A DNA stretch of 64,000 nt from a virus (IMGVR_UViG_3300024352_000023:19146-83145), one strand, 5' to 3'. Numbered from the stretch's first letter, positions 27,894 to 46,361 are shown. A program made the numbers and translations. Notes: a model not told the origin generated them from the letters alone.

Positions 27894-27896
27894 GGC

Positions 27897-28029: not shown

Positions 28030-28055
28030 GGTCAGTTTTACGTCATGACCAGGAC
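28030..28055 (-). ncRNA. Leader pseudoknot repeat, copy 1
   Basis: GTCCTGGTCATGACGTAAAACTGACC on the minus strand. Confidence 0.75.
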
Positions 28056-28082
28056 GGCGGAGTACCACACCCGGTGGCGGAG

Positions 28083-28457
28083 TCAGTCTACCAGGTCAGT
28101 CAAGCCCTTAGTCGTGACCTTGACCAGCTCAGAGAGGTAGTCAGTAAGTGCTTCGACCTTGGCGTTGACGGATTGGATTTCCTCCATCAGCTCCTCCCTG
28201 GAGGGAGTCAAACCAAAGATGTCGTTGTCCTTCAGTGCCTCTGGGTTGTTGGCCTTTTGGTACCGGCGACAATCATCGTTGGCTGCATAAACAGCATCTG
28301 TGAACAACTCATGAGTTGCTTTTAACTCCAAGTATCCAAGATCTTCTTCATCCAAGATGGCATGTGCACGTTTGTACAACTTGGCAGTAAACCTGATGTT
28401 GTCTTCAAAGAACTCCTCGTACTGTTCAGAGGGAAGGCCGTAGGTGTCAATCGACAT
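28083..28457 (-). CDS. Hypothetical protein
   Basis: Start taken at MSIDT. Confidence 0.6.
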   Translation of the reverse strand: MSIDTYGLPSEQYEEFFEDNIRFTAKLYKRAHAILDEEDLGYLELKATHELFTDAVYAANDDCRRYQKANNPEALKDNDIFGLTPSREELMEEIQSVNAKVEALTDYLSELVKVTTKGLTDLVD

Positions 28458-28695
28458 AACAATCCAAAGCTTCTCGGAGTGCATCAATCATAAAGGTTTC
28501 TTGTCCTTCTGGACCTAAGTCGGTCCACCATTGAAGATCAGGATCTTTGTCATCCCAATCAATACGGATGGTCATGGATCCATCCTCTTCATCAATGCAT
28601 TCAATCTGTAGCTTGTTGATCGAGTTCGGATTCAACGTGGCCCAAGAGGATGTTTTCTGCATAGGTTTCACAATCAGTTCTGATCTCTGCACCAA
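28447..28695 (-). CDS. Hypothetical protein
   Basis: EEDGSMTIRIDWD..DP motif seen in cyanophage proteins. Confidence 0.55.
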   Translation of the reverse strand: MVQRSELIVKPMQKTSSWATLNPNSINKLQIECIDEEDGSMTIRIDWDDKDPDLQWWTDLGPEGQETFMIDALREALDCYVD

Positions 28696-28764
28696 GTTTA
28701 ATCAGACCCCAGTAGGTATCTTCATTAACCTCAAGGTGCAGAGAATACTTACCATTTGAAAGCA

Positions 28765-29709
28765 TCATTGCTTTTTCACAGCGGCTTTGAGTTGTGGCAG
28801 AGATACACCAGGAAATGGTGTGTAACCAGCCTCCATCATATTGAAGAAAAGATCCCAGGCATGGTGCTGCGTGAACACCTCTTGTGGTTTGTACGTACGC
28901 CAGTGGGATAGAGGAGCTTGAGCACCAGACTTGGTGTGGAGCAGAACAAAGCGACCATCACTGATGTGATCCGAGGGCGGCGCATACCACCAGGCCACAC
29001 ACTTCTCAGGTGTACCGCTGGGACTGGCATTACGGGTATCAGTGCGTTTGCACAGCAGTTCCCTGTACTTGTTGAACCAAGTCAGGTGTATACACCACGG
29101 TTTAAATCCCTGGATTTCTTCTTGGAAAGCAGATAGATTTGAAAGCTGGCGTTGAAAGGACCCACATGAACAACTAGGTTCACCAAACGAGGACTGTTGT
29201 TCTTGCACATCATCCAGTTCACCGTCCATATCAAGCGGCCGATTCGGAAGCCGAAGTCCGTCAGGCGCAACCAAATGGCCCAGGTCCGTTTGGTCAGACT
29301 GAAGGAGTGCTTTGATCTTTTCGGGGTCTGATACATGTATGAACTTATCTGCCCAATGGGTTTGGAGTTTTGCATTCGAGGTTAGGTGTCCGAGTGCGTG
29401 CGTGTAGTTCCAGCCCTTAAACAATATGTAAGCATTGTTATGCCATACACTAGGGCCACGATAATTAGGGCCAAGATAAGAAAAGAAATCTTTGAGACGG
29501 TGGGTGTAAGAAGAGTAGGCAGCTTTGATTAGCTCCCGTGCGTAAGCCTGCTGACTACCATCGCGACGCACCACAACACAATCAGTATCTCGCAGATAGA
29601 TCCCAGCAATGTCGGTGTCATCAAAGTCTTGGTACGCACGGCGGATGTTCGTCCGCGTGTAGATGCACGCCTGCGCCGCGTTGAGTTCCTGGAGGATTTG
29701 CGTTGACAT
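28765..29709 (-). CDS. SWIM-type zinc finger protein
   Basis: CSCGSF...WCIH (CxC..CxH). Confidence 0.65.
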   Translation of the reverse strand: MSTQILQELNAAQACIYTRTNIRRAYQDFDDTDIAGIYLRDTDCVVVRRDGSQQAYARELIKAAYSSYTHRLKDFFSYLGPNYRGPSVWHNNAYILFKGWNYTHALGHLTSNAKLQTHWADKFIHVSDPEKIKALLQSDQTDLGHLVAPDGLRLPNRPLDMDGELDDVQEQQSSFGEPSCSCGSFQRQLSNLSAFQEEIQGFKPWCIHLTWFNKYRELLCKRTDTRNASPSGTPEKCVAWWYAPPSDHISDGRFVLLHTKSGAQAPLSHWRTYKPQEVFTQHHAWDLFFNMMEAGYTPFPGVSLPQLKAAVKKQ

Positions 29710-29733
29710 GATTTGAATTGGGTTGAGTTGAGA

Positions 29734-29937
29734 TCAGATGTAAAGGTCATGGTCTGGAGGAACTGACCTGTCTCTGGAACGTTCGCGAGCCATCTCGCGT
29801 GCTGCCTTACCGATACGGTATGAACCGTAGATGACAGCAGCCCATGCCACTGGTGTGGTTAGGCATGCGGCAATTGTACCAGCAACCAAAACCGTGGCGC
29901 CACCAGCAGTGATTGCAGCTTTGTCTTCAGGTTTCAT
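29734..29937 (-). CDS. Small membrane protein
   Basis: Hydrophobic segment, 67 aa. Confidence 0.55.
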   Translation of the reverse strand: MKPEDKAAITAGGATVLVAGTIAACLTTPVAWAAVIYGSYRIGKAAREMARERSRDRSVPPDHDLYI

Positions 29938-30015
29938 CAGTAATCCTTAATACATTTGGAAAGTGGTTGTTGAACTTAACTGTAGAAGTAAAATGTTTGT
30001 AACAACTTAATACAG

Positions 30016-30279
30016 ATGGAAGAGATTAAGTACGTACCATTAACTCAGTTCCAGATTGAACCAACACTTGATGATAAGTTTTGGCTGGAAAAAATCAAAC
30101 GATCCATACAAGAATGTGACTCTGTTAGTACCTTGAAAGAAATGGCGACCTTGCTTGCGCAGATCGCCACGAATCGTCAAGGTGTGATAAGGGGATTGAT
30201 CCAAGACATGTTCATCTTCAACAATGTTGCAGTTGAACCAAGTGATGTGACCAACCCCCAGGTTCCTGGATCAGAGTGA
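30016..30279 (+). CDS. nblA: NblA-like phycobilisome degradation protein (tentative)
   Basis: TLDDKFWLEKIKRSIQEC...LKEMATLL.....RQGVIRGLI fits the NblA helix-loop-helix pattern (LsLeqqF...R...l). Confidence 0.5.
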   Translation: MEEIKYVPLTQFQIEPTLDDKFWLEKIKRSIQECDSVSTLKEMATLLAQIATNRQGVIRGLIQDMFIFNNVAVEPSDVTNPQVPGSE

Positions 30280-31287
30280 CTCGTCTTCCCCGGTGAGTTC
30301 GTTGCGTGAGGGCAGAGCCTTCACTTCAACGGCATCAGTGGTACGGGAGACGGGCAGGATCTGCACGCCATCCTTGATTCCATAGGCACCACCAAGACGC
30401 TGGGCATCTTGACGGGAGTGCTGGTTGATGTAGTCATCAAACATCTCCTGCATCTTCCAGGTGGATTCACGATCTTCATCAGGAATCGACAGGCGATTCA
30501 AGGATTCGACCGCATCATCCTGGGAGCTGTAATCAGGAATCTCGAAGGATTCGATAGCGCAGATCTCAACGTTGTTAGCACCACGCATCTCATTAGCGAG
30601 GACGGGAGCAAACACCGTGGTGGCATAGAACTTCTCGTTGAATGCCAGAGGCACTTCAGAGTCCAGTGCTTTGCTCAGGCACTTGGACATTTCCTTCTCG
30701 TACAGCTTGACCTTGTCCGATACGTCGGTGCCGTTGAGACCCTTAAGAGTAAGGACCATCGGGATCTTGTGAGCACGCTTGTTGTCCTGGGTCAGGATGT
30801 AGACCAGATACTTGGTGCGCACGCTGTACTTGCGCTTGTACATCTCACCTTTGCTGTTGGCCAGATCAGCGGCCACCTTGTCGTTGTCAAACATGGCTTT
30901 GACATCGGGATCTTCAAAGGTGCCAATCGTCTGGCGCATCCCAGTGGTTTCTTCCACCATCAGTGGAGAACGCAACAGGATCTGAACGCGGGGTTCAGTG
31001 AAGTTGAGACCTTCCTCGATGGAAGTGTTGGGTGCCATGCCAAAGGTTTGCTTGTAATCCCAGATGACAGAACCTTTGGTGAACTGATCTTCTGTTGCAG
31101 TCCAACCGCAGGTATCAAGATCGGACTTACGGACAAACCAACCGCGTACTTTGGATTTGTTTAGAGGTTGAATGGTGACAAGATTCTGGTAACCAGAAAC
31201 AAATTCTTTGGACTGAAACATCCGGAAGGAGTCGAGTCCACGGGTTGCAAGCGCAGCAGTTTTCTTGGTGGTCATGGAAGAAGTCAT
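30271..31287 (-). CDS. DUF5895-like protein (cyanobacterial/phage, next to SSB)
   Basis: RTKYLVYILTQDNKRAHKIPMVLTLKG; start moved to MTSSM because the upstream part contains the leader repeat. Confidence 0.65.
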   Translation of the reverse strand: MTSSMTTKKTAALATRGLDSFRMFQSKEFVSGYQNLVTIQPLNKSKVRGWFVRKSDLDTCGWTATEDQFTKGSVIWDYKQTFGMAPNTSIEEGLNFTEPRVQILLRSPLMVEETTGMRQTIGTFEDPDVKAMFDNDKVAADLANSKGEMYKRKYSVRTKYLVYILTQDNKRAHKIPMVLTLKGLNGTDVSDKVKLYEKEMSKCLSKALDSEVPLAFNEKFYATTVFAPVLANEMRGANNVEICAIESFEIPDYSSQDDAVESLNRLSIPDEDRESTWKMQEMFDDYINQHSRQDAQRLGGAYGIKDGVQILPVSRTTDAVEVKALPSRNELTGEDESL

Positions 31288-31308
31288 GGTTGTTTCGTAG
31301 TCAGGAGT

Positions 31309-31334
31309 GAGCAGTTTAACGTCATGCTCAGGAC
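31309..31334 (-). ncRNA. Leader pseudoknot repeat, copy 2
   Basis: GTCCTGAGCATGACGTTAAACTGCTC. Confidence 0.75.
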
Positions 31335-31340
31335 GGATCA

Positions 31341-31583
31341 TCAGTCTGCTTTGGATCCACCCGCATTCATCACGTACACCTCAGTACTTAATGAATCGAA
31401 GTACATCTCAGACAGCTCCTTCATAGCTTCAAAGATGTTGCTTTCCATGTAGCCGCAACCCTTGAGGAAATCCACAAGGTGTTGCACGACATCATCAGCA
31501 ACCAGTGCTTTGAATTCGTGGAGGACTTTGGTGTTTTCGTCTTCGTAAAGCAGAGTGAATTGATCGTGAGTTGGAGTTGACAT
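31341..31583 (-). CDS. Hypothetical protein
   Basis: HEF...DDVV....DFLKGCGY motif common in phage proteins. Confidence 0.65.
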   Translation of the reverse strand: MSTPTHDQFTLLYEDENTKVLHEFKALVADDVVQHLVDFLKGCGYMESNIFEAMKELSEMYFDSLSTEVYVMNAGGSKAD

Positions 31584-32404
31584 CAGAATGGAAGTTCTTC
31601 AAGTTCAGGTGCTGCTCCGTATTGACCGGGCAGATCAGGCAACCCACCACCTGAGGCCTGGTTCCAGGGATCAGATTGTGTGTTGTTGCTTGCCCATAGG
31701 TTAACGGTGTTTTCAGCCGCTGCATTGTTTGTGGTGGATGCCACAGGTTTCACTTGGGACTCAACTGCACCATTGTCACTGGCCTTAGGAGGCAGGGTGA
31801 GATTGGAGACTTGAATCTTGGTAGATGTGCGGCGCTCCTTGGTTGCCTTATCAGTCCAGGCATCGGTCACCAGCTTGCCGTGAATCGTCAGGCCAACGCC
31901 CTTACGGGTGTAGTTGGCAATCAACTCTGCGTTATTCAGGCGATCTTTCGTGGAGTTGATGGCAAAGAAGTTAAAGAGATCTGCTTTGTTCTTGCCCATG
32001 GGGACAGAGAGCGTCTGGTTGCAGATCATCAGACCATCAGCTGTAGTGCGGAACACACGCTCATCTGATTCATCGATGTCTTTGATGCAACGACCCGAGA
32101 GGATCACATCGTTGAGGATGGGTGTACTTTCAGTAACTTCATACACAATTCCTCCATGCAACGAATACGTTCTGGATTGAACGTCGAAACGTAACTTGGC
32201 GCTGTGAATGTGCAGACGTGCGCCTGCTTTGTAGGTACGGAATTTCTCACAAGCTTTACCGTAGACATTGAGTTCAAGTGGAGTGGGTGCTTTGTTACTG
32301 ACCGGAGGCAGGTTAACGAGAGCACGCAGATTGAATGATGTCTCACTGGTGTAAACCTCACGGGGTTCTTCCATGAGGACAGCGCAGACAGATGCGAAGT
32401 TCAT
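31583..32404 (-). CDS. ssb: Single-stranded DNA-binding protein (two OB-like halves)
   Basis: NDVILSGR, RKGVGLTIHGKLVTDAWTDK..ERRT, acidic C-terminal EELPF. Confidence 0.8.
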   Translation of the reverse strand: MNFASVCAVLMEEPREVYTSETSFNLRALVNLPPVSNKAPTPLELNVYGKACEKFRTYKAGARLHIHSAKLRFDVQSRTYSLHGGIVYEVTESTPILNDVILSGRCIKDIDESDERVFRTTADGLMICNQTLSVPMGKNKADLFNFFAINSTKDRLNNAELIANYTRKGVGLTIHGKLVTDAWTDKATKERRTSTKIQVSNLTLPPKASDNGAVESQVKPVASTTNNAAAENTVNLWASNNTQSDPWNQASGGGLPDLPGQYGAAPELEELPF

Positions 32405-32425
32405 TGATTCAGACGGTAGGTGTTA

Positions 32426-32451
32426 AGGCAGTTTAACGTCATGCCTAGGAC
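32426..32451 (-). ncRNA. Leader pseudoknot repeat, copy 3
   Basis: GTCCTAGGCATGACGTTAAACTGCCT. Confidence 0.75.
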
Positions 32452-32457
32452 GTGGCA

Positions 32458-34317
32458 TTAGTGGGTTTGTGCCCAGGTGTAGCCGACGTGAGAGTCGCCT
32501 TCAATCTTACAGCGAAACCCAAAGAAGTCTTGTGCTTTCGGGAAGGCAGCCAGTGCGTGTTCCTGGATGATGGGCACGGTGTTCTCTGGGCAAGACAGCT
32601 GCACTTCATCGTGGATCATGGCGTGTTGGATCCAGTCCTTGCCATGCACCAAGCCAGCTGTTTCCAGTGATTCATGAATGTTGATGACCACTTGCTTCAT
32701 GAGTACAGCACCTGCAGCTTGGAGCAACACGTTCAATGCTTTGAATTCAGAGCGACACCAGAGTGCACGACCATCCAGTCCACGTAAGTAACCACGGTCA
32801 CAGAGTGCAAGCTCAAGGTTTTGTTTGAGTTTCTTGAGTGCTGGCACACCGTTCATAAATCCATTGATGGCGGACTTACCTAGCTGACGCAATGTTTCTG
32901 TATCTTTCTCATTCGGATCGATGATGGTACCAGCCTTAATGGCACCACATCCATACAACATTCCATACAGCAAACGCTTACTGATGTCCCTCGTCTCTAC
33001 ACCAAATTGTTGTTGGTTATAGGTATGGATATCAATGGATTCATCAGTTACCAGATTGGCGTACTCACCGTCATCCCAAACGGCTAGGTACCCTGCAAGA
33101 CAACGGAGTTCCAATGCTTTAGCATCCACCCCAATGAGATGCCAGTTGTAAGGAGCGTGAAAAAGATTACGGCATTCCTTGCCATAGGGTGAGTAAGACG
33201 CTGGAACCTGACCCATATTTGGATACCGATGGCTACAACGCCCAGTGATACAACCATTAGTAACCACGTCCCCGTGAATACATAGATCATCATTGTTGAC
33301 AAGCTTGAGCCATGCATTGTTTCCATCGGCAATTTGTCCAAGACGTTTTTTGATGAGCATGTACTCAGCCAGGGGCTGAGCTTCTGGGAATGGAAGCTGT
33401 TCTAGAACTTCATCATTAAGGATTGGATTTCCTTTCTCAGTTGTTTTCTCTGGTTTCCATCCGTACTTTTTCCACAGTCTATTAACAATTTGGTCACGAG
33501 ATCCAGGATTGAATTCCTCTGACCGTCGTTTAATAAATGGTTGTCCTTTAACATAACCACGCTTGCTGTTGTTTACCTTAGGGATAAACGTTTCTTCATG
33601 GATGATGGGCGGAAACAATTCCTTTAGATGAGACTCCAGTTCTTCTTGTTTTGCTCTAAGCACATCCACAAGATCAAGGCATGCATCAACATCAAAAGGA
33701 AAACCTGCTCGCACTTGTCTGTTAATTGCCAAGGCAAAGTCATGCTCAAGCTTGAGCGCTGGTTCCTCATAGTTTTGCCGTGTGATCTGCTCCCAGAGTT
33801 TTGTGGTGACCACAACATCCTGGATGCAGTAGTCAAGCATCTCTTGAGAAAATTCGGAGAAGTCTTTGAAGTTGATCTTGTGATCGGCCAACCTCCATCC
33901 CCATGCCTTAAGTGATGCGGATCCACGTAAGTCCTTTGGAACTTGCGGATATTGTTCGCAGTCCAAGTCATAGAGTCTCTCCTTTGGCCAGATCAGACGT
34001 GTGCAGATGAGGGTGTCAAGGATGCGTGCTTTGCAGACGAATTGATGCAGCTTTTGCAGAACCGGTACGTCATAGAAGATCACGTTGTGACCAATGAGTA
34101 CATCAGCGGTTGCCAGATGAGCAAGAGCATCAGCAATACGATCAGGCCCATAAGCAAAAGTTTGTTGTTTGTTGATGTCATAAATCACCAGACAATGAAC
34201 AACAGAAGCTTTGTCATACAGGCCATCAGTCTCGCAGTCAAAGACTAGCCACGTTTCATTTACGGAACTGGGCTTCGTCGCGAACTTGGAGTTCTTCACT
34301 GGCAAGACTGGTGTCAT
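32458..34317 (-). CDS. polA: Family A DNA polymerase (T7-like, with 3'-5' exonuclease)
   Basis: FDCETDGL, GHN..YD, YCIQDV; TGRCSH..PN, DAKALELR, KRLLYGMLYG, HDE. Confidence 0.95.
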   Translation of the reverse strand: MTPVLPVKNSKFATKPSSVNETWLVFDCETDGLYDKASVVHCLVIYDINKQQTFAYGPDRIADALAHLATADVLIGHNVIFYDVPVLQKLHQFVCKARILDTLICTRLIWPKERLYDLDCEQYPQVPKDLRGSASLKAWGWRLADHKINFKDFSEFSQEMLDYCIQDVVVTTKLWEQITRQNYEEPALKLEHDFALAINRQVRAGFPFDVDACLDLVDVLRAKQEELESHLKELFPPIIHEETFIPKVNNSKRGYVKGQPFIKRRSEEFNPGSRDQIVNRLWKKYGWKPEKTTEKGNPILNDEVLEQLPFPEAQPLAEYMLIKKRLGQIADGNNAWLKLVNNDDLCIHGDVVTNGCITGRCSHRYPNMGQVPASYSPYGKECRNLFHAPYNWHLIGVDAKALELRCLAGYLAVWDDGEYANLVTDESIDIHTYNQQQFGVETRDISKRLLYGMLYGCGAIKAGTIIDPNEKDTETLRQLGKSAINGFMNGVPALKKLKQNLELALCDRGYLRGLDGRALWCRSEFKALNVLLQAAGAVLMKQVVINIHESLETAGLVHGKDWIQHAMIHDEVQLSCPENTVPIIQEHALAAFPKAQDFFGFRCKIEGDSHVGYTWAQTH

Positions 34318-34489
34318 GTTTGTTAATCCACGTCAAGATCTGCTGAGCACCAGCCCTATATGGGTGGGAGAAGATCTTATTCAGAGCTACTTCTGAATCT
34401 AACGGAATTAATTGGAATTGATTTGAAGTCTTGCAGGCAGTGATGGCAAATGGCCTGCCATCTTTCCATGTAGCAATGACGTAAGACAT
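34256..34489 (-). CDS. Hypothetical protein
   Basis: 77 aa upstream of the polymerase. Confidence 0.55.
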   Translation of the reverse strand: MSYVIATWKDGRPFAITACKTSNQFQLIPLDSEVALNKIFSHPYRAGAQQILTWINKHDTSLASEELQVRDEAQFRK

Positions 34490-34544
34490 AAAGGAATGAA
34501 AGACGGACAGATACTATCCGATCTTTCATTCCCGTCAAGGTTCT

Positions 34545-35312: not shown

Positions 35313-35348
35313 GGTGTTAAGTTGAGTTGAATGATAAGTAAAACTAAT

Positions 35349-35374
35349 GAGCAGTTTAAGGACATGCTCAGGTC
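35349..35374 (-). ncRNA. Leader pseudoknot repeat, copy 4
   Basis: GACCTGAGCATGTCCTTAAACTGCTC. Confidence 0.75.
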
Positions 35375-35430
35375 CATCTTCCCGTTCGGGAGTGTTACAC
35401 AATGAACGACATCATATACATCAAGCGTCA

Positions 35431-35454
35431 TATACTTTCCGTATCAATCGCTAC
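35431..35454 (+). promoter_or_regulatory. -10 box (TATACT) plus candidate NtcA box GTA-N8-TAC
   Basis: TATACT 35431-35436; GTATCAATCGCTAC 35441-35454 just before the DUF4278 ATG. Confidence 0.5.
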
Positions 35455-35460
35455 AGAATC

Positions 35461-35613
35461 ATGACGCTTACGTATCGGGGTGTCAAGTATGACAAGGACG
35501 AACAGGCTAAGAAAGATAAAGCCTGGTGGAATCTAGCCCATCGTCCGTGGCTACGCCTGACATACCGTAACATCGGCTACAATCCTTTCCTTACTGGAGG
35601 TCAAATCAAATGA
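35461..35613 (+). CDS. DUF4278-family small protein
   Basis: MTLTYRGVKY...LTYRNIGY. Confidence 0.75.
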   Translation: MTLTYRGVKYDKDEQAKKDKAWWNLAHRPWLRLTYRNIGYNPFLTGGQIK

Positions 35614-35726
35614 ACAAAGCATTGATTGTTTACCTGGTGAACCAGAAAAAGAAAGTGGCACGCAAGGATGTGGAATCCAAGCATGCCATCAAGGAATTAG
35701 AAAAACAAACAACCGCGACCTTCTGA
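35610..35726 (+). CDS. Small basic hypothetical protein
   Basis: 38 aa, ATGA-coupled to DUF4278. Confidence 0.45.
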   Translation: MNKALIVYLVNQKKKVARKDVESKHAIKELEKQTTATF

Positions 35727-35808
35727 TCGCCATTTGTTTACTTCGCCCTCTTGTTCTTCAGAGGGCTCACTGTATTTAAAGCCATCCATGCAGTTGAGCC
35801 ATGGTGCA

Positions 35809-38435: not shown

Positions 38436-38444
38436 GAGTTAAAG

Positions 38445-38475
38445 GGGCATCCCTATAACGAGGATAGGATGCCCC
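38445..38475. other. Stable intergenic hairpin
   Basis: GGGGCATCC...GGATGCCCC inverted repeat. Confidence 0.55.
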
Positions 38476-38485
38476 TGCTGTGGCT

Positions 38486-40192: not shown

Positions 40193-40222
40193 GAGTTGAG
40201 TTCGTAGTTGGTTCGTAGTGTT

Positions 40223-40248
40223 GAGCAGTTTAACGTCGTACTCAGGAC
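40223..40248 (-). ncRNA. Leader pseudoknot repeat, copy 5
   Basis: GTCCTGAGTACGACGTTAAACTGCTC. Confidence 0.75.
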
Positions 40249-40257
40249 GTGATGTCA

Positions 40258-40998
40258 TTACGATTCAACTGTTAACAATTGAATGTTGTAATGTTTGATC
40301 CATTCCACCAGCTTTGCTGTGGCTTCTGGTGACTCCAGACCAATGCATCCACTGGTACCGGACTCACCGTTGAGTTTGCCCCAGCTTGGATCTTGGTGGA
40401 AGCCAAGGGCTGAACGGTTGGTGTTGAATAAAGGAATCACTGGTACCCAGAATCCTTTACCAAGTTCTGGATCATCGAATGGTGCACGGGCAATGCCGTA
40501 CCGATCGATGGAGTATGTGCCGATGGGCAGTGGTGATTTGTTGCCAGCAATGTTGCGATTCGCTGTTTGCTTAGAGGCACGTCCTGTTAGAGCAGGCATG
40601 CTATCCAGGACTTGACCGTTGGCAACCAACTGTAGTTTCCAGATTGGATCCTTGGTTTGCTTAACGGTCTCCTTGGTGCGAATCAGCAACAGCTTTGCTG
40701 ACGGACGATTGCGTGCAGGTGGGATGGGTACATTGTTCTTGAATTGGATCTCAGGACGCTCGGAGCCTGGCTCTGGTGGGGCACCAGGGGTTGGTGTGGC
40801 ATCGAGGGGTAGCATCCCATCAGGGACGCTGCGAGCCATATCACCAGGCCCTTGCTCTAGAGGTTGTGAGTACATCAATGAACGCAAGTGATCTTGCTGT
40901 TCATTGTGATGAGTAACCATGTTGTTGATGTTGTGGACTGCAACGGCAGATCCAACACCAAGTGCAGTTGAGATGAGTGCAATCATTGGTAGTTTCAT
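40258..40998 (-). CDS. L,D-transpeptidase (YkuD) domain protein with N-terminal signal/TM
   Basis: PLPIGTYSI, RSALGFHQD...GTSGCIGL (H..S.GC catalytic motif). Confidence 0.8.
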   Translation of the reverse strand: MKLPMIALISTALGVGSAVAVHNINNMVTHHNEQQDHLRSLMYSQPLEQGPGDMARSVPDGMLPLDATPTPGAPPEPGSERPEIQFKNNVPIPPARNRPSAKLLLIRTKETVKQTKDPIWKLQLVANGQVLDSMPALTGRASKQTANRNIAGNKSPLPIGTYSIDRYGIARAPFDDPELGKGFWVPVIPLFNTNRSALGFHQDPSWGKLNGESGTSGCIGLESPEATAKLVEWIKHYNIQLLTVES

Positions 40999-41001
40999 TG
41001 G

Positions 41002-41391
41002 TTACATGTTACCTGGCCCTGTGGGTGCAGGCGCTGAGTAGTATGCAGGAGCTGCATCAAAGTTTCCAGGTCCTGTGCTTGGAGCACGAGGAGGTGGCGG
41101 TGGAGGAGTAGGTTGCGGTACAACAGGTTGTTCAACAACAGTTGGAGTTGGTTGCTGAGTTTGTTGTACTGGTTCTTCTTTGGTTTCAGTTTGGGTCTGG
41201 CCGTCTTCTTTGAGCTTGGCTTCCCATTCTTGTTTCGCTTTTACCTGTGGGTCAGGATCAAGCTTGCCGTCCTGGTCAGGTTGATTATTTGGCATCAATC
41301 CACCAATGACCATTTGCATGGTGGCAACACCAGCACAGGCGATGAGGAAGCCAATGAAGACTGCGACGCCAAGGATGATCTTTCTTGTCAT
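41002..41391 (-). CDS. Membrane-anchored Pro/Gln-rich protein
   Basis: N-terminal hydrophobic helix and poly-Pro tail. Confidence 0.65.
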   Translation of the reverse strand: MTRKIILGVAVFIGFLIACAGVATMQMVIGGLMPNNQPDQDGKLDPDPQVKAKQEWEAKLKEDGQTQTETKEEPVQQTQQPTPTVVEQPVVPQPTPPPPPPRAPSTGPGNFDAAPAYYSAPAPTGPGNM

Positions 41392-41657
41392 CGGCAGAGG
41401 TAGTCAGAGCGCATCCAGCCAACGAGTCCGTTGTATTCAACGCGATACCAACGCATTTGATCACCGCCCCATACCCAGTCCAATGCCCGGAGGTATTGAC
41501 TGTTCGGTATGGAGGCGATGACTGTGTTGTTCTTGGATGGGCCATTGCGTAGGTTGACAGATGAACCAGGGTCCCTGGTACATGTCATGGCCCATTGTGC
41601 GTTGGCCGGAAGTGCGATAAAGAAGTTAAGTGCGAGTAGTGAAAGCCAGTGTTTCAT
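41388..41657 (-). CDS. Secreted SH3b-domain protein
   Basis: Signal peptide, VNLRNGPS, WYRVEYNGLVGWMRSDYL. Confidence 0.85.
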   Translation of the reverse strand: MKHWLSLLALNFFIALPANAQWAMTCTRDPGSSVNLRNGPSKNNTVIASIPNSQYLRALDWVWGGDQMRWYRVEYNGLVGWMRSDYLCR

Positions 41658-41678
41658 GGATAGGTAGATACTGTTAAT

Positions 41679-41704
41679 GGGCAGTTTAACGTCATGCCCA
41701 GGAC
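41679..41704 (-). ncRNA. Leader pseudoknot repeat, copy 6
   Basis: GTCCTGGGCATGACGTTAAACTGCCC. Confidence 0.75.
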
Positions 41705-41755
41705 AATGTGTTAAAGAGTTAGAACTTCTTTAACGTATTAGAAGTTATGTGTTAG

Positions 41756-42010
41756 TTAATCATATTCAACGAGTTGCCACTGTGGATCGAGCTGATCAAG
41801 ATACAGAGCGAAGCCATCTTCGTCAAGAGGAATCGGTTCGTCTGGATCCAGCTCGACAGTTGCTGTACAAAGTGCTGGAGCCCACTCTTCAGGATCAAGA
41901 TGAGTTGCTCGATAGAGTAGGCGCATTTCGTCAACAAGCGCTGTAACAGTGACATGAGTTTCAGTGAATTGAACGTCTTCAATAGCAAGGACTGAACAGT
42001 AGTTAACCAT
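41756..42010 (-). CDS. Hypothetical protein
   Basis: ATHLDPEEWAPALC motif. Confidence 0.6.
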   Translation of the reverse strand: MVNYCSVLAIEDVQFTETHVTVTALVDEMRLLYRATHLDPEEWAPALCTATVELDPDEPIPLDEDGFALYLDQLDPQWQLVEYD

Positions 42011-42195
42011 TAGCCTTCATCCACGTAGGAATACGTTTTGGTGATGACGCACTTGTACTTATTCCATGCACGAGCACTGGTGTACTCGGCATTGAAACGT
42101 TGTTCGTTAAGTACGTTGGCTTGTGCCCTGCGCACAGCGCATGCAGCAAGATTAATTCGATCAAACAAGTTGATGTCGTCGGTGAAAGCAGACAT
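42010..42195 (-). CDS. Hypothetical protein
   Basis: Start MSAFT after a CTCAACTCA leader. Confidence 0.55.
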   Translation of the reverse strand: MSAFTDDINLFDRINLAACAVRRAQANVLNEQRFNAEYTSARAWNKYKCVITKTYSYVDEG

Positions 42196-42217
42196 GATTT
42201 GAGTTGAGTTAGTGGAC

Positions 42218-42282
42218 AGAAGCTGGGACTTACACTGCCTCCTTCTGTGCTGTTTGCACAACGAGTACAGACGCCCAGTTCT
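42218..42282 (-). repeat. Hairpin family B, copy 1
   Basis: CTGGG-C...GTAAGT-CCCAG closing stem with internal loop. Confidence 0.55.
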
Positions 42283-42480
42283 TTAGATTAGCTTAATGTT
42301 TGGAATGCTTAGTCCAGTGCCAGGAATACTGACTGATCCTTTGACGCCATTGGGACTGGCGTTGAGAGTCAGCTGGAATGGACCAAGCTTGACTGCTTTA
42401 GTCAGTGATTTGACACCGTGTTCGGTGATGTTTACACCATGGATGGTGCGATCAAAACTGATGAGTGATTTCTTAGTCAT
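42283..42480 (-). CDS. DUF4236-like protein
   Basis: NITEHGV...GPF..N...G...SVSIPGTGLS. Confidence 0.65.
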   Translation of the reverse strand: MTKKSLISFDRTIHGVNITEHGVKSLTKAVKLGPFQLTLNASPNGVKGSVSIPGTGLSIPNIKLI

Positions 42481-42683
42481 TTGAGATCGTCTGGTAGTAG
42501 CGCTTGGGATTCTTCTTCGTCCATATTTGTCATAACAAATTTCTGTCCATCGGGGGCAATAAAGCCCCCTATGAATCCCATACCAAGACGATCGGATGTT
42601 TCCTTCATACGTGCAACTAATTGCATAGCTTGAAGTCTTTGCATATCCATGGAGTCTGGTATGCGAGGAGTGTTGTTAGTCAT
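42477..42683 (-). CDS. Hypothetical protein
   Basis: Start MTNNT. Confidence 0.6.
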   Translation of the reverse strand: MTNNTPRIPDSMDMQRLQAMQLVARMKETSDRLGMGFIGGFIAPDGQKFVMTNMDEEESQALLPDDLK

Positions 42684-42813
42684 TGAGATAGTGTGGAGTG
42701 AATGATGAGAGTCTACCAGGCTTGTCAAGGTAAGACCAGGGGTATGTAGATAAAGGTTCCTTATCTAATATAAGGTTTACCCCTGGTACTCCCCTGCGGG
42801 GGTGCAGGGGGGA

Positions 42814-43086
42814 TTACGAGTGCATAGCCTGGTGTTCTTTCCATGCAGCTGCGTGCATTTCTGCAGCAGTGATAGGTGGTTCACCTAGTTCGTTTGGTGT
42901 TGGGTCGTAGTCAAGTTCTTCCTCCAGCATGGAGATGATCTCTTCGACTACACCTTTGGTATGTGGTGCAAGATGTTCGTCCATCTCATGTCGCTTGCTT
43001 TCGCGAGCAAGGACATTCTTAAGGATGGAGCGTACTTCTTCCAGGTAGTAATACTCGTTTTGTGGATAAGCTTTGGCTTGTTCCAT
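42814..43086 (-). CDS. Hypothetical protein
   Basis: Start MEQAK; GEPPITAAEMH. Confidence 0.6.
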   Translation of the reverse strand: MEQAKAYPQNEYYYLEEVRSILKNVLARESKRHEMDEHLAPHTKGVVEEIISMLEEELDYDPTPNELGEPPITAAEMHAAAWKEHQAMHS

Positions 43087-43113
43087 GATTGGTTTGGTGT
43101 GGAGTGAATGTAA

Positions 43114-43158
43114 ACCCTGGGACTTACGCACCGTACTTACGTCGATGCTGCCCAGGGT
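43114..43158 (-). repeat. Hairpin family B, copy 2
   Basis: ACCCTGGG-CA-GCATCG...CGGTGC-GTAAGT-CCCAGGGT. Confidence 0.55.
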
Positions 43159-43173
43159 ATGTCGGTATAACAC

Positions 43174-43425
43174 TTACGTTGACTTGGGATCAAGCATGAT
43201 CCAGCCAGTGTAGTTAGCACTGCTTCGGTCAACGCGTATTAAACCGTATTGTTCCAGTTTGATCAATGCGTTGAGGTATTGATCAAGCCTGGATACTTGA
43301 GTTGAACACCGTGGTACATAACACGGTGTGTTCTTATGTCTCTTCTTGTGTGCCAAGAAGTAGAGATAAATGTTGCGTTGATTGATGGTCAGTCCCCGAA
43401 CCTGAGGCAGTGCTTCTGTTGTCAT
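43174..43425 (-). CDS. Hypothetical protein (possible winged helix)
   Basis: LTINQRNIY...AL.KLEQYGLIRV. Confidence 0.55.
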   Translation of the reverse strand: MTTEALPQVRGLTINQRNIYLYFLAHKKRHKNTPCYVPRCSTQVSRLDQYLNALIKLEQYGLIRVDRSSANYTGWIMLDPKST

Positions 43426-43793
43426 CAGCAGTAGTGTGGTTTGGATTCGGGGTAGACCTTAGCGAAGTCGTTGGCGAAGTTGACTTCGTAGTTGTGGTAC
43501 GTCGTCGAGAGCCCGAGGCTTGGCTGGTCTGCGATCTCGTACTCGTCGAAGTATTGGATGAAGGTTTGGACCGCTTGCTTCTTGGAGAAGATGCAATGGG
43601 TGAGGACTGGGAGTCCTGCCTGGTAGTACCATCCACCTTCCTCTGGACCGCCGTAGTTGAGCGTGGTTTCGTGGACGGTGACAGTCGTTGGGTCTTCGTG
43701 TTCCCAGTCCTTGTGGGTGTTGTAGCGCTGGATTGCGTAGCGCAACTTGTAGGACTTGGGGTAGTACTTCTGGAGTTCAGAGAGGTAAGACAT
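43425..43793 (-). CDS. Conserved phage protein
   Basis: YGGPEEGGWYY...P...PHYC motif. Confidence 0.7.
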   Translation of the reverse strand: MSYLSELQKYYPKSYKLRYAIQRYNTHKDWEHEDPTTVTVHETTLNYGGPEEGGWYYQAGLPVLTHCIFSKKQAVQTFIQYFDEYEIADQPSLGLSTTYHNYEVNFANDFAKVYPESKPHYC

Positions 43794-43880
43794 TGGATTG
43801 CGTCGATGAGTTCAGTGATCAGGATTAAGATGATAGCGATGATAACAATGACGATGTCAGTGTCATCTTGCTGAGTGTGC

Positions 43881-44090
43881 TTAGCTTTGGTCATCGTGAA
43901 AGTCCTCCATTGGTTCGATGAATTGGAATTCGGATTGATCTGCTTCTCGCATGGCTTCTTCTAGTTCGTGTGCACGATCAGCCATGGCGTCAAGCAAGTC
44001 AGAGTTGTAGTTGTTATCAAGATCTGCCATTGATTCGTCGGCAAGCCAAGGAAACATGGCATCTTCTTGAAGCATGTCAATGTTTGTCAT
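43881..44090 (-). CDS. Acidic hypothetical protein
   Basis: 69 aa downstream of a leader repeat. Confidence 0.6.
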   Translation of the reverse strand: MTNIDMLQEDAMFPWLADESMADLDNNYNSDLLDAMADRAHELEEAMREADQSEFQFIEPMEDFHDDQS

Positions 44091-44113
44091 GGTTTGAATT
44101 GAGTGAATTGGCT

Positions 44114-44139
44114 GAGCAGTTTAAGGACATGCTCAGGTC
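44114..44139 (-). ncRNA. Leader pseudoknot repeat, copy 7
   Basis: GACCTGAGCATGTCCTTAAACTGCTC. Confidence 0.75.
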
Positions 44140-44170
44140 CATGAATGATATGTATGTACTACTGCGGTAG

Positions 44171-44671
44171 TTAGATCTTCACCTGGGTCCAGGATGTACC
44201 CTTGTGAATGTTAGAGATTGTGTGGTGACTGACGTTGTACACACGTGCAATCTCTTCGTAGGCTTGCTGCCTTGACTTAAAGCGATTCATTGTCGCTTTG
44301 TCGGACAGCATCAGCTTGATCTCTCGTACCTTCTGGTTATCTAACTTGTAGTTACCACCATGAGGTACAGGCTTCTTAAAAGATCGATCAGCTGTAGTTC
44401 CTTGGTCCTTGGAGGCAAGCTTCTCGAGATAAGCTAAGCTTGCTTCTCGTTGATACTGAGATTGAATCTTGGCATCTTTAACAGCCATCATCTGTGGTGC
44501 CGGCTGTTGTTGGAGGGGGACTGGGGGAGTCGTATTGAAGACAGCTTTGATCGGAAAGCCCAGTGTCACTGATGCACCGTCTTTCGTTACCGAGACAGTG
44601 ATCTTGCCATCCCTGGTGATGACAGAGACGTGATCAGGGCTTTGAACGTCAAGTTGGCTGAGGGGTTCCAT
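44171..44671 (-). CDS. Protein with C-terminal HTH DNA-binding domain
   Basis: KL...KVREIK...EIARVYNVSHHTISNIHKG.SW; start MEPLS. Confidence 0.65.
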   Translation of the reverse strand: MEPLSQLDVQSPDHVSVITRDGKITVSVTKDGASVTLGFPIKAVFNTTPPVPLQQQPAPQMMAVKDAKIQSQYQREASLAYLEKLASKDQGTTADRSFKKPVPHGGNYKLDNQKVREIKLMLSDKATMNRFKSRQQAYEEIARVYNVSHHTISNIHKGTSWTQVKI

Positions 44672-44786
44672 GGCTTTGATTGAAGTGAGTGCGATGGATG
44701 CAGATAGAGGATAGCTGGTACATACATGGATGCAAGTACCAGCCGTAGCGTCGGGATTCTTGAGAACACCAGATGTGTGGTGTGAG

Positions 44787-45134
44787 TTACTGCATGTAGA
44801 GGTAAGCGCCAGCCCAGTCGGCATTCTTGAGGCAGGTCTCAAACGATACGTCGTCTAACAAGTTGTAGCGCACATGTTTGGCTGGTGCCTTCCATGATGC
44901 TGGCTTGTAGACAGACCCTGTTTGTCTGCCGACGAATGCATGGACTGACGTGTGTTTGCGTTGAGCGTGTGGATTCTCAACGCAGATTAGTTTGTAGTAC
45001 TTGGTCCCACGAACCACTTCGTAGTTAATCGTGGAACCAGGATGTTGTTGCTGAAACTTCTCGATGAGCTTATCGATTAAGCAGTGGATACGTGCTTCGA
45101 TAACCTGCGTTGTTTCAGCGAGTTGTGTGTGCAT
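44787..45134 (-). CDS. Conserved phage protein
   Basis: GTKYYKL, SVHAFV...TG.VYKPASWKAPAKHVRYNL; start uncertain. Confidence 0.75.
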   Translation of the reverse strand: MHTQLAETTQVIEARIHCLIDKLIEKFQQQHPGSTINYEVVRGTKYYKLICVENPHAQRKHTSVHAFVGRQTGSVYKPASWKAPAKHVRYNLLDDVSFETCLKNADWAGAYLYMQ

Positions 45135-45309
45135 TGTTCTGAGGGTTGATATTGGTGATGTCAACGCCGACCATTGCGCCTGCCGTCATGCATGTAATGG
45201 CAATGACGAATAGTGCGCAGATGAAATTAGTACGGCGTGTCTCACGAGACTCACCGTAAGAATCAAGTCTGATGTAACGGTTGCGTCCGAGTCGTGTTGT
45301 GTGTTTCAT
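45115..45309 (-). CDS. Small membrane protein
   Basis: Hydrophobic C-terminal half. Confidence 0.55.
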   Translation of the reverse strand: MKHTTRLGRNRYIRLDSYGESRETRRTNFICALFVIAITCMTAGAMVGVDITNINPQNNAHTTR

Positions 45310-45327
45310 GAGTTGAATGCGATGGAT

Positions 45328-45402
45328 GCAGGAGGTGAGTCCTGCAGAAAACCCACCGTCCGATACGAATTCGTATCAGTGGTAGGGTTATGAGCAGGAG
45401 TC
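45328..45402 (-). repeat. Long hairpin family C, copy 1
   Basis: TCCTGC..AACCC..ACCAC..GATACG hairpin..GACGGT GGGTT..GCAGGA..TCCTGC. Confidence 0.6.
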
Positions 45403-45404
45403 GT

Positions 45405-45788
45405 TTAGAACGGGACTTCTTCCAGTGTGGGTACTGCCTGAGCCCTTGGTTCAACAACAGCCTTGGGCTTGGGTGCTGAGCCAAGTGTTGCCCTCACGTT
45501 CGTAAGAGCAATCTCAGGGTACTTGAGTGGAAGTAGTTGATCATCCTTGGTGTAATGCGTCCGGATGCTAGAGATCCGTACGTCATATTGACTGAGGATG
45601 ATCTGTTGTCCTATCACGAACGTACCGTTGCGATAGGCAGTGAGTAATCCGTTGGAATTGTTAAATTTAATTCGACAGGACCTGTCGTAGGCATCATTGA
45701 CTGCAACTGTAATTGCAAGAAATTCACGACCTTCATGGGTCGCTAATTCCATGTAGCTTACGTTGCCAATGATAGTGCTAGAGAACAT
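45405..45788 (-). CDS. OB-fold/SSB-like protein
   Basis: TIIGNV start, ITVAVN, C-terminal EEVPF. Confidence 0.5.
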   Translation of the reverse strand: MFSSTIIGNVSYMELATHEGREFLAITVAVNDAYDRSCRIKFNNSNGLLTAYRNGTFVIGQQIILSQYDVRISSIRTHYTKDDQLLPLKYPEIALTNVRATLGSAPKPKAVVEPRAQAVPTLEEVPF

Positions 45789-45812
45789 GATTGAGCTGAG
45801 TTGAGTTGATGA

Positions 45813-45888
45813 GCAGGATGTGTAGTCCTGCAGAAAGCCCACCGTCGTAGTACATGTGTACTCAACGGAAGGGCTAAGTGCAGGAGTC
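45813..45888 (-). repeat. Long hairpin family C, copy 2
   Basis: TCCTGC..AGCCC..CCGTT..AGTAC hairpin..GACGG GGGCT..GCAGGA..TCCTGC. Confidence 0.6.
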
Positions 45889-46096
45889 AGGGCTTCACGA
45901 TGTCTGTGTTATGGATACAGAAGTATGTATCGCCAAGAAATCCACGGCTGAATACCAGGTTGTGCCCTGGTCTCTCGTGGCATGTGTTCTTGTGGTGTTG
46001 GTTGATTGCTTTCTGTCCAAAGACAGAGAGGATCATACCCAAGCCAGTGCCAAGAGCAATGGCGATACAAGAGTCAGCGAAGTGATTGTTAGTCAT
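45887..46096 (-). CDS. Small membrane protein
   Basis: N-terminal TM; GFLGDTYFCI. Confidence 0.6.
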   Translation of the reverse strand: MTNNHFADSCIAIALGTGLGMILSVFGQKAINQHHKNTCHERPGHNLVFSRGFLGDTYFCIHNTDIVKP

Positions 46097-46106
46097 GAGT
46101 CAGTGG

Positions 46107-46310
46107 TTAGTTGGAGTAGCAATAGTCGTAGTAGTCACGCATCTCTGCGTATAGATCCTTCACTCCACCTGGGATAAACGGAAGTGTACGTGTCTCGATG
46201 TCGATCCACTTCTCCGTATGTCCACGTTGTTGGAAGTGAAGTTGAGTGGACTCTCCTCCGTACCACGCTACGCGAGTACGGTCGTCACACTCTGGTTGAA
46301 AGGTGAGCAT
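46107..46310 (-). CDS. Hypothetical protein (first gene of the leftward block)
   Basis: 67 aa. Confidence 0.55.
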   Translation of the reverse strand: MLTFQPECDDRTRVAWYGGESTQLHFQQRGHTEKWIDIETRTLPFIPGGVKDLYAEMRDYYDYCYSN

Positions 46311-46337
46311 GAGATGAATGGAACGAGATAGAACGTC

Positions 46338-46361
46338 GCTACGTTTAACGTCCAGCTCGAC
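46338..46361 (-). ncRNA. Leader pseudoknot repeat, divergent copy 8
   Basis: GTCGAGCTGGACGTTAAACGTAGC. Confidence 0.5.

Follow-up and report, generated by a model that had tools for sequence, protein, structure and literature searches.

Why should one short sequence recur, always on the same strand and each time between genes, throughout the early region of a cyanophage genome? The question is raised by a stretch of viral DNA of 64,000 nucleotides (nt), namely positions 19146-83145 of the record IMGVR_UViG_3300024352_000023 (hereafter, the window), in which a first-pass annotation, made from the sequence alone, had noticed eight dispersed copies of a 26-nt leader between positions 28,030 and 46,361. 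This leader was taken for an RNA pseudoknot, and it was likened to coremin, an exoribonuclease-resistant motif of eukaryotic RNA viruses. Here we report, with high confidence, that the element belongs to a family of sense-strand H-type RNA pseudoknots, which turns out to be widespread among phages and bacteria, and we weigh what this fold may do for the messages that carry it.

A covarying pseudoknot on the sense strand

When aligned, the canonical copies of the window occupy 28 nt with the layout N-GWC / C / UNNNCA / N / GWC-N / UWAAAC / UGNNNA, that is, a first stem (S1) of 4 bp, a first loop (L1) consisting of a single C, a second stem (S2) of 6 bp, a second loop (L2) of 1 nt, and a third loop (L3) of sequence UWAAAC. 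A 1-nt L1 that crosses a 6-bp S2, together with an A-rich 6-nt L3 that runs along a 4-bp S1, is the classical geometry of H-type pseudoknots. Covariation in both stems, as originally claimed, proved even stronger than described, each stem gaining one pair: the bases flanking GWC and GWC' extend S1 (C-G in four copies, G-C in two and U.G in one), and in six of the seven copies a U just ahead of S2 pairs with the A that follows S2'. Taken alone, each helix of the window copies has a predicted energy of -1.4 to -4.4 kcal/mol (S1) or -3.3 to -7.5 kcal/mol (S2).

A window-wide search with the degenerate pattern GWCCTNNNNANGWCSTWAAACTG, compared with shuffles of the window, gave seven matches, all of them on the minus (coding) strand, where the chance expectation is 0.44; none of 100 shuffles reached this number. 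The sequences of all eight annotated stretches were re-read identically, and seven of them are canonical copies, located without exception within the minus-strand block of early and replication genes. The eighth stretch (46338-46362) stands only as a plausible short-stem variant, without support from covariation. It has only S1, S1' and the L3 core in common with the canonical copies, its S2 is limited to 4 bp (GCUG/UAGC), and its score against our covariance model is not significant (9.3 bits, E = 4.1); its core is identical in one related contig, L030, where the flanks are different. No additional canonical copy was found in the rest of the 83,145-bp record, using both the pattern and a relaxed structural scan of the whole genome. 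The positions of open reading frames (ORFs) confirm that every copy is intergenic and upstream of an ATG, and the identities assigned to the downstream genes (DUF5895, ssb, GP88, PcfJ, SH3 and others) were also upheld. The copies and their settings are as follows, all on the minus strand; the covariance model was built from 127 instances, and the scores of the canonical copies (41.6-48.8 bits) include them as training sequences.

Copy 1, 28029..28056, minus strand: cGUC-C-UGGUCA-U-GACG-UAAAAC-UGACCA; 41.6 bits; 26 nt past the stop of ORF 28083-28487 and 18 nt from the ATG (28010) of a hydrophobic ORF of 37 amino acids (aa), followed by a Gp157-like gene.
Copy 2, 31308..31335, minus strand: cGUC-C-UGAGCA-U-GACG-UUAAAC-UGCUCA; 48.8 bits; 5 nt past the stop of ORF 31341-31583 and 20 nt from the ATG (31287) of the DUF5895 gene.
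Copy 3, 32425..32452, minus strand: cGUC-C-UAGGCA-U-GACG-UUAAAC-UGCCUu, the outer S2 pair being U-U; 42.9 bits; 5 nt past the stop of the DNA polymerase A gene (32458-34317) and 20 nt from the ATG (32404) of ssb.
Copy 4, 35348..35375, minus strand: gGAC-C-UGAGCA-U-GUCc-UUAAAC-UGCUCA, two S1 pairs being swapped; 44.5 bits; 35 nt from the ATG (35312) of a GP88-family gene, the nearest upstream ORF of at least 60 codons ending 321 nt away.
Sigma-70-like site, 35486-35458: upstream of copy 4.
Copy 5, 40222..40249, minus strand: cGUC-C-UGAGUA-C-GACG-UUAAAC-UGCUCA, with a U.G wobble in S2; 45.3 bits; 8 nt past the stop of a YkuD-domain gene (40258-40998) and 29 nt from the ATG (40192) of a PcfJ-domain gene.
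Copy 6, 41678..41705, minus strand: uGUC-C-UGGGCA-U-GACG-UUAAAC-UGCCCA, S1 being closed by a U.G wobble; 47.6 bits; 46 nt past a stop and 20 nt from the ATG (41657) of an SH3_3-domain gene.
Copy 7, 44113..44140, minus strand: gGAC-C-UGAGCA-U-GUCc-UUAAAC-UGCUCA; 41.9 bits; 30 nt past the stop of ORF 44171-44842 and 22 nt from the ATG (44090) of a 69-aa ORF.
Eighth stretch, possible short-stem variant, 46338..46362, minus strand: CGUC-GA-GCUG-GACG-UUAAACG-UAGC, with L1 = GA; 27 nt from the ATG (46310) of a 67-aa ORF that heads the leftward gene block.

The gap to the next ATG is 20-36 nt in the seven canonical copies, or 18-35 nt when counted from the last base of the 28-nt knot, and the eighth variant has a gap of 27 nt. 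The leaders that follow the seven knots hold one to four G per 35 nt and no Shine-Dalgarno sequence, and their folding energies are 0 to -2.2 kcal/mol. These leaders (27990-28028, 31288-31307, 32405-32424, 35313-35347, 40193-40221, 41658-41677 and 44091-44112, minus strand) are G-poor and rich in C and A, with CAACUC and ACUACGAAC as recurring words, and those of related contigs are similar in style.

The evidence that carries the fold comes from 127 distinct sequences of viral contigs, which were selected by pattern and are mutually related, so that the following shuffle figures are not probabilities. Paired cells amount to 94.0% of this alignment, compared with 79.7% in column shuffles and 21-49% when the partners are slid by one to three columns; the covariation score is 0.462 versus 0.203 in shuffles, a value matched by none of 500 of them; and five of the ten pairs show changes on both sides. 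In S1, where 98.4% of the cells are paired and all seven window copies pair, the pair 6-17, which is a free W/W in the pattern, is UA in 67 sequences and AU in 60, and unpaired in none, and the pair 4-19 is CG in 82, UG in 26 and GC in 11. In S2, with 91.1% of its cells paired and three pairs altered on both sides, the positions that the pattern leaves unconstrained (10-30, 11-29 and 12-28) pair in 86%, 96% and 99% of the sequences, with four to five pair types each.

The same alignment tells which strand is folded. Column 13, unconstrained and opposite a fixed G, holds C in 82 sequences and U in 45, and nothing else, and over the whole alignment there are 110 G.U or U.G cells and 5 A.C or C.A cells. 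Because G.U outnumbers A.C to this extent, the helices are formed on the sense strand only, as RNA; both the pairing of the free columns and this strand asymmetry are independent of the pattern selection. Looser matches add further compensated forms, namely AUC/GAU, CUC/GAG, AAC/GUU and GUG/CAC in S1, and an A-U pair in place of C-G in S2, while L1 = C and the AAAC of L3 are retained. The original interpretation, an RNA fold and not an operator or promoter recognized as double-stranded DNA, is therefore borne out by the covariation of both stems and by the excess of G.U on the sense strand.

Spread and placement of the knot

Scanning IMG/VR with the exact pattern returned at least 118 loci, and a slightly stricter pattern returned at least 120 loci from bacteria represented by one genome per species. 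Since the free W positions of S1 are complementary in 127 of 127 distinct viral sequences, practically every match is a true instance; the same complementarity is found in every bacterial match among the matches listed. The carriers are hundreds of unrelated phages and prophages, plus some chromosomal loci, and the notion of a phage-wide system belonging to one phage did not hold. Among cultured carriers there are phages of Lactobacillus, Bacillus, Anoxybacillus, Moorella, Mycobacterium, Arthrobacter and Paracoccus, as well as Staphylococcus phietaviruses, in which a head-morphogenesis gene and its neighbour flank the copy, with the major capsid protein gene coming after that neighbour. Phages of cyanobacteria include those of Microcystis, Nostoc, Cylindrospermopsis and Synechococcus, and a clonal group of Vibrio phages carries a copy with S1 = CUC/GAG. 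Bacterial matches come from Firmicutes, Desulfobacterota, Omnitrophota, Saccharibacteria, Cyanobacteria, Chloroflexota, Actinomycetota, Bacteroidota and others, with no alpha-, beta- or gammaproteobacteria among the 80 bacterial match titles listed. A BLAST search of 50,697 phage records, which is suggestive only, matched no enterobacterial or Pseudomonas phage, and a 34-nt copy searched against 5,426 Escherichia coli genomes had no match, a weak test given a short query in 28 Gb.

Synechococcus phage S-EIV1 also has seven copies. Five or more of them occupy junctions orthologous to those of the window, ahead of the genes for the PcfJ-like protein, ssb, GP88, DUF5895 and the small MFE... protein. 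At these junctions, the differences between the stems of the two phages are compensated changes. Before GP88, for instance, S1 is GGAC/GUCC in the window and UGUC/GACA in S-EIV1, and S2 is UGAGCA/UGCUCA and CAAGCA/UGCUUG, respectively.

Some loci carry the knot in unusual arrangements. Tandem knots occur in L111 (6410-6490, two units followed by a transfer RNA, tRNA), in L141 (3306-3362, two exact-pattern copies 34 nt apart) and in L033 (11126-11197). In an Omnitrophota metagenome-assembled genome (MAG), L196, the locus 5650-5830 looks chromosomal and has a strong sigma-70-like promoter, TTGACA-17-TATCAT, followed by a 27-codon leader ORF with a GGAGG site. This leader ORF translates through the knot and terminates at a UAA within L3 (GUUAAAC), and a conserved gene beginning MKLITR(D/N)TDY lies about 25-35 nt beyond its end; the same type of arrangement is found in L130, L155, L195, L200, L205 and L222. 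Translation of such a leader ORF would unwind the knot, which may represent an attenuation-like use of the same fold.

With respect to the genes around it, the knot keeps a strict distance from stop codons. In 219 instances with an upstream ORF on the same strand, we counted the nucleotides that separate the first S1 pair from the stop codon. Only six instances lie below 5 nt; the mode is exactly 5 nt (26 instances), followed by 6 nt (nine), 7 nt (eight) and 8 nt (seven), and then a long tail of longer distances. The sequence of this spacer is not conserved. Two of the window copies are found exactly 5 nt past a stop and one at 8 nt. With the stop codon in the ribosomal A site, at +4 to +6, five further nucleotides reach +11, the site at which the helicase of the ribosome opens duplexes. 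Because the 5-nt floor puts the first pair just beyond +11, the knot stands at the nearest place that a terminating ribosome leaves folded.

Towards the next start the distances spread much more widely, above a floor near 19-20 nt, with a median of 58 nt versus 18 nt on the stop side, although some downstream distances are inflated by the 60-aa cut-off for ORFs. Across phages, a stop within 40 nt combined with a start beyond 40 nt occurs in 45 cases and the reverse in 12, and an upstream ORF on the same strand is present in 117 of 118 instances, whereas a downstream one is missing in seven. Thus, the annotated position as a leader before an ATG is correct in the window, where all seven copies lie near the next ATG, even copy 4 with its upstream ORF end 321 nt off; across phages, in contrast, the stop codon is the tighter anchor. 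The knot can also adjoin tRNA genes, found 1, 5 and 34 nt downstream or 1, 12 and 30 nt upstream of it, which fits a role in RNA ends or RNA processing rather than one in translation alone. The 5-nt stop-codon rule, the asymmetry between G.U and A.C, the orthologous comparison with S-EIV1 and the RNase J census given below are new.

A proposed roadblock on polycistronic RNA and its rivals

What is established is the fold itself, the strand on which it forms, how widely it occurs and how it is spaced from its neighbours; its resistance to nucleases or ribosomes, and the effect of this on gene expression, we infer. The reading that we tentatively prefer, with a confidence somewhat short of even, is that the knot would be a protein-independent roadblock or insulator on polycistronic RNA, which in this phage would chiefly provide a protected, knotted 5' end for downstream cistrons. 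Each copy would be transcribed within the long leftward early and replication message and would fold as a compact H-type pseudoknot, whose A-rich L3 (UWAAAC) could occupy the minor groove of S1. The knot would occupy the only stretch in which its fold can persist, beginning at least 5 nt past the stop, just clear of the helicase entrance when a ribosome terminates, and ending about 20 nt or more before the AUG, just beyond the initiation footprint. From there it would most likely block mechanically, without any protein and much as coremin (xrRNA-C) does, the machines that thread RNA from the 5' side, which in the cyanobacterial host would be the 5'-3' exonuclease RNase J and the 5'-end-dependent RNase E. 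After cutting or trimming of the polycistronic RNA, the downstream cistron would retain a knotted 5' end and an unstructured, G-poor leader without a Shine-Dalgarno sequence, and neighbouring cistrons would be insulated from each other. Within this scheme, the protection of 5' ends is plausible. It is tempting to go further, although we hold this a little more loosely, and to propose that the knot may be the first class of exoribonuclease- and ribosome-resistant RNA in the bacterial world: a 28-nt protein-independent roadblock, homologous or convergent to coremin, which phages of many phyla would place where the terminating ribosome cannot unwind it, so dividing polycistronic messages into segments of independent stability and translation.

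Several observations weigh against this proposal. First, RNase J, for which we searched 50 motif-bearing bacterial genomes with TIGR00649 above its curated cut-off, is present in 36 and absent from 14, that is, from all five Omnitrophota, three Bacteroidota, two Syntrophia, and single members of the Ignavibacteria, Lentisphaeria, Planctomycetales and 'Proteobacteria'. As these genomes are MAGs, single absences are soft, but they cluster in Omnitrophota and Bacteroidota. The control Synechococcus elongatus matches the profile, and cyanobacteria, the host class of the window, have the enzyme. Since RNase J is lacking from 14 of 50 genomes, and the knot is also found in Vibrio phages, no 5'-3' exonuclease can be a universal target; RNase J, which had been suggested from its presence in cyanobacteria, remains a candidate for these hosts and is ruled out as a universal partner. 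Second, the motif is anchored to the stop more than to the start (45 versus 12), and a role at gene ends fits at least as well. Third, the second hairpin (hp2) that coremin needs for resistance to the exoribonuclease Xrn1 is absent, and the 8-nt loop of the knot falls outside the YGAD/YGNNAD consensus of coremin loops. Fourth, the RNA data consist of assembled metatranscriptome contigs, which cannot show RNA ends and may include carried-over DNA: contigs from four riverine runs, at a depth of 1-12, span the copies at 28055, 35374, 40248, 41704 and 46361, and one contig stops at 31336, which is 1 nt to the 5' side of the first S1 pair in copy 2, a single observation that gives a weak hint.

Rho is not known from cyanobacteria, nor is RNase E from many Firmicutes; the ribosome and the 3' exonucleases are the machines that every host possesses. 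Two alternatives involve these machines. In the first, which we consider unlikely though serious, the knot would be a cap at gene ends, guarding the 3' end of the upstream segment from 3'-5' exonucleases (PNPase, RNase R/II), that end being generated by cleavage in the unstructured leader or, where a tRNA follows, by RNase P. Such a cap agrees with a position tied to the stop with a mode of exactly 5 nt, with the predominance of stop-proximal over start-proximal cases, and with upstream ORFs being nearly always present and downstream ones at times missing; moreover, where tRNAs begin 1-5 nt after the knot, RNase P would leave the knot at a 3' end, and enzymes of the PNPase type are near universal, fitting hosts without RNase J. 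However, a plain G+C-rich hairpin suffices against 3' exonucleases, and the invariant C of L1, the AAAC and the coremin-like sequence would remain unaccounted for. The window knots, in addition, track the downstream start in all seven copies, including copy 4, and tRNAs also end 1-30 nt before the knot.

The second alternative, which we judge doubtful, is directed at the ribosome: standing at the mRNA entrance of the terminating ribosome, the knot would stop post-termination sliding, re-initiation or read-through, and would so uncouple the translation of neighbouring cistrons or modulate termination. In terms of ribosome geometry, the 5-nt floor equals the spacer between the A-site codon and a frameshifting pseudoknot, and it places the first pair at about +12, just past the helicase site at about +11. 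The ribosome is also the sole 5'-3' machine common to all hosts found, and coremin itself brings scanning ribosomes to a halt and stimulates -1 frameshifting in vitro (PMC10520033, PMC10321173). Nevertheless, copies that adjoin tRNA genes, and those far from an upstream ORF, such as copy 4, are unexplained, and the floor may merely reflect the need of any functional fold to escape unwinding.

A third possibility, for which we hold out little hope, is an operator for a trans-acting factor, modelled on the autoregulatory pseudoknot leader of T4 gene 32, through which a conserved host or phage protein would co-regulate the genes that bear the knot. The strong conservation of the loop nucleotides, the presence of ssb among these genes and the multiple copies, reminiscent of a regulon, speak for it. 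Yet the motif occurs in phages without common gene content, in many phyla and at chromosomal loci; no common partner gene was noticed, without a systematic test of co-occurrence; and a host partner would need to be nearly universal.

We regard as very improbable a signal acting at the level of DNA, either a promoter read by a phage RNA polymerase or by a modified host enzyme, with TAAACT as a -10-like box, or a folded single-stranded signal akin to N4-type hairpin promoters or primosome sites. Such a signal would suit the conservation of about 26 nt lying 20-36 nt before starts, and just before some tRNA genes, and in Staphylococcus phage B166 a promoter predicted by BPROM overlaps the copy. 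Two interleaved covarying helices with their G.U excess are, however, inexplicable by recognition of double-stranded DNA, and the spacing from stop codons is a feature of translated RNA. Likewise, contigs from RNA libraries run through five copies, and no sigma-70-like site falls on any copy between 27.5 and 47.2 kb, where there are 19 such sites versus 24.2 in shuffles; a scan of the same region found no terminator-like site coinciding with a copy. No RNA polymerase of the T7 type (PF00940) was found in the 83-kb genome, in a weak search whose controls gave no match. Finally, a very small metabolite-binding riboswitch of the preQ1-I type, with its H-type pseudoknot and A-rich tail, is scarcely credible despite the similar topology and size class, the loop sequence conserved across phyla and the context in Omnitrophota, where the knot lies in a leader with a promoter and short ORF on one side and a regulator gene on the other, since no riboswitch model (preQ1-I/II, SAM-II, fluoride, guanidine-III) scores even at E ≤ 10 on seven motif-bearing loci and a 161-nt stretch around one copy, the seven window copies precede functionally unrelated genes and others adjoin tRNAs, and the window shows no expression platform, neither a sequestered Shine-Dalgarno sequence nor a terminator.

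If the roadblock reading is true, and the knot stalls ribosomes or decay of the RNase J or RNase E type, the biology of exoribonuclease-resistant RNAs (xrRNAs) would reach DNA phages and bacteria. It would account for how phages tune the stability of mRNA segments within long operons, and it would offer synthetic biology a portable insulator or stabiliser of 28 nt. The hundreds of natural covarying sequences define both helices and provide a guide to the structure of a fold that is unsolved in coremin, and the cultured carriers (Staphylococcus phietaviruses, Lactobacillus phages and S-EIV1) make the function directly testable.

Genome setting and comparison with known systems

The whole record of 83,145 bp is the genome of a phage related to Synechococcus phage S-EIV1 (KJ410740), with which it has gene order in common and a DNA polymerase A that is 69% identical. 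This rules out a prophage with the tRNA-Pro at 22.7 kb as its attachment (att) site. An 882-aa ORF suspected to be a T7-type polymerase proved to be a primase-helicase, and Pfam gave no match for a 436-aa ORF (23872-25182) or a 568-aa ORF (47120-48826). The phage, or a near-identical strain, is found in at least 18 riverine DNA runs and six metatranscriptome runs from 2018-2019 (window 27400-46900), and riverine contigs with at least 99% identity cover most of the early block. Other features are the following.

4423-5481: endolysin with glucosaminidase and M15 domains, within the left 22 kb.
8308-9609 and 15211-16059: glycosyltransferases, among the sugar genes of the left part.
9952-12600, minus strand: Prim-Pol/D5 primase-helicase.
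16035-17060: GDP-mannose 4,6-dehydratase, left part.
17112-18284: DegT aminotransferase, left part.
22707-22780, plus strand: tRNA-Pro(UGG).
23294-23845, minus strand: ferritin-like protein, early block.
35809-36510, minus strand: ThyX thymidylate synthase, early block.
37727-37748, minus strand: strong intrinsic-terminator-like hairpin with a T run, about 400 nt downstream of tRNA-Leu.
38151-38226, minus strand: tRNA-Leu(UAA), inside the minus-strand early block.
40258-40998, minus strand: YkuD L,D-transpeptidase-domain protein, early block.
46740-46758, minus strand: strong intrinsic-terminator-like hairpin with a T run, just upstream of the eighth variant.

As to known RNA families, the Rfam check that had been proposed for novelty returned none at the gathering threshold, the window giving only two tRNAs, and at E ≤ 10 seven motif-bearing loci gave nothing but sub-threshold GP20-b (RF03003) on copies of the Firmicute type (20.5-20.8 bits versus a gathering score of 36.2). 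GP20-b is a candidate cis-regulatory RNA upstream of the GP20 genes of phages, a single gene family. Its 5' hairpin, with the loop G-GNC-G-UAAAA-G, corresponds to S2, S1' and L3, and an unpaired GUC before it to S1; by contrast, its model has 62 positions, a second hairpin and an A-rich tail, and no pseudoknot is annotated. The window copies and the S-EIV1-like loci L030 and L036 have no match to it at E ≤ 10. The second half of GP20-b-type loci (L071, 6020-6052) resembles a degenerate second unit, GAG...CUC-G-UAUAAAAC. A possible likeness to the Pistol ribozyme (P1, GUUAAAU, loop pseudoknot) is matched by no Rfam hit.

Two further systems resemble the knot in part. Stabilisers at 5' termini, such as the 5' hairpin of ompA and the Bacillus leaders that block RNase J1, protect mRNA from 5'-end-dependent decay. 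They also place a structure at or near the 5' end, followed by an unstructured leader with a ribosome-binding site, but they are plain hairpins at primary 5' ends without conserved sequence, whereas the phage knot is internal and conserved across phyla. The -1 frameshifting pseudoknots of luteoviruses (BWYV, PLRV) share the size class, the short L1 and the A-rich L3 with minor-groove triples, and they sit 5-8 nt past the A-site codon, which matches the 5-nt floor after stops. They differ in following slippery heptamers inside ORFs, where the frame changes, the phage knots being found after stops with no slippery site or extended frame.

A close likeness in sequence is seen with coremin, which consists of GUCCGAAGACGUUAAACUAC, correctly given in the first-pass annotation (PMC10520033), plus the hairpin hp2, and which is found in beny-, cucumo- and other eukaryotic RNA viruses (Dilweg et al. 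2019, PMC6546385; 2023, PMC10520033). Its stem pairs, the pyrimidine after the stem and the AAACU are needed for stalling of Xrn1 (PMC6546385, PMC10520033, PMC10321173), which in vitro halts about 1 nt before the first hairpin (hp1); the pairs of hp1 can be exchanged when compensated, only C or U is accepted after the stem, the spacer A16-A20 is essential, and a downstream hp2 of at least 4 bp is required (PMC6546385). The phage knot likewise has a stem of 3-4 bp, (N)GUC/GAC(G), that tolerates compensated changes, a C (pyrimidine) after this stem, the spacer G-UUAAAC-U, and GUCC...GACGUUAAAC as a common string; the proposed H-type topology, with an A-rich L3 in the minor groove of S1, is also alike, and both elements recur several times within a genome, in untranslated regions that separate or follow genes. 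Of the 10-nt spacer of coremin, GUUAAACUAC, the knot keeps G/C-U-W-A-A-A-C-U, several of these columns being fixed by the pattern in our viral alignment, and AAAG replaces AAAC rarely, as seen in S-EIV1. The differences are as clear. The loop of the knot has 8 nt, six of them in a Watson-Crick S2 of 5-6 bp, while that of coremin has 4 or 6 nt and no canonical S2; written as C, 6 nt ending in CA or UA, and H, the phage loop agrees with the coremin consensus only in Y = C. Position 20 is G, rarely A, and paired in S2 in the knot, and a free A in coremin. The 35 nt downstream of the knot, with folding energies of 0 to -2.2 kcal/mol, offer no hp2, and the knot is carried by DNA phages and bacteria, where Xrn1 does not occur. 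Neither phages nor bacteria are mentioned in PMC10321173 and PMC10520033, as judged by word search, and we found no description of a phage xrRNA in the literature searched.

A further system is xrRNA-WCC, a Watson-Crick variant of coremin with a 3-bp S2 that was selected in a frameshift screen, is found in Sanxia picorna-like virus 5 and resists Xrn1, compensatory mutants restoring its resistance (PMC10321173). Like the phage knot, it keeps the stem and spacer of coremin, and its loop pairs with the nucleotides that follow AAA to give a canonical antiparallel S2; it differs in the length of S2 (3 bp versus 5-6 bp), in requiring hp2 and in its L1, which is G, the knot having C in 127 of 127 sequences, where the pattern fixes it, and in all looser matches. 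Of all the copies considered here, the eighth variant of the window, with a 4-bp S2 and L1 = GA, comes closest to it in form. Thus, the likeness first noted to coremin holds for the stem, L1 and the G-UUAAAC-U of the spacer and fails for two defining features, the loop consensus and the second hairpin. The phage knot is coremin-like in form, but by the definition of coremin itself it falls outside that class.

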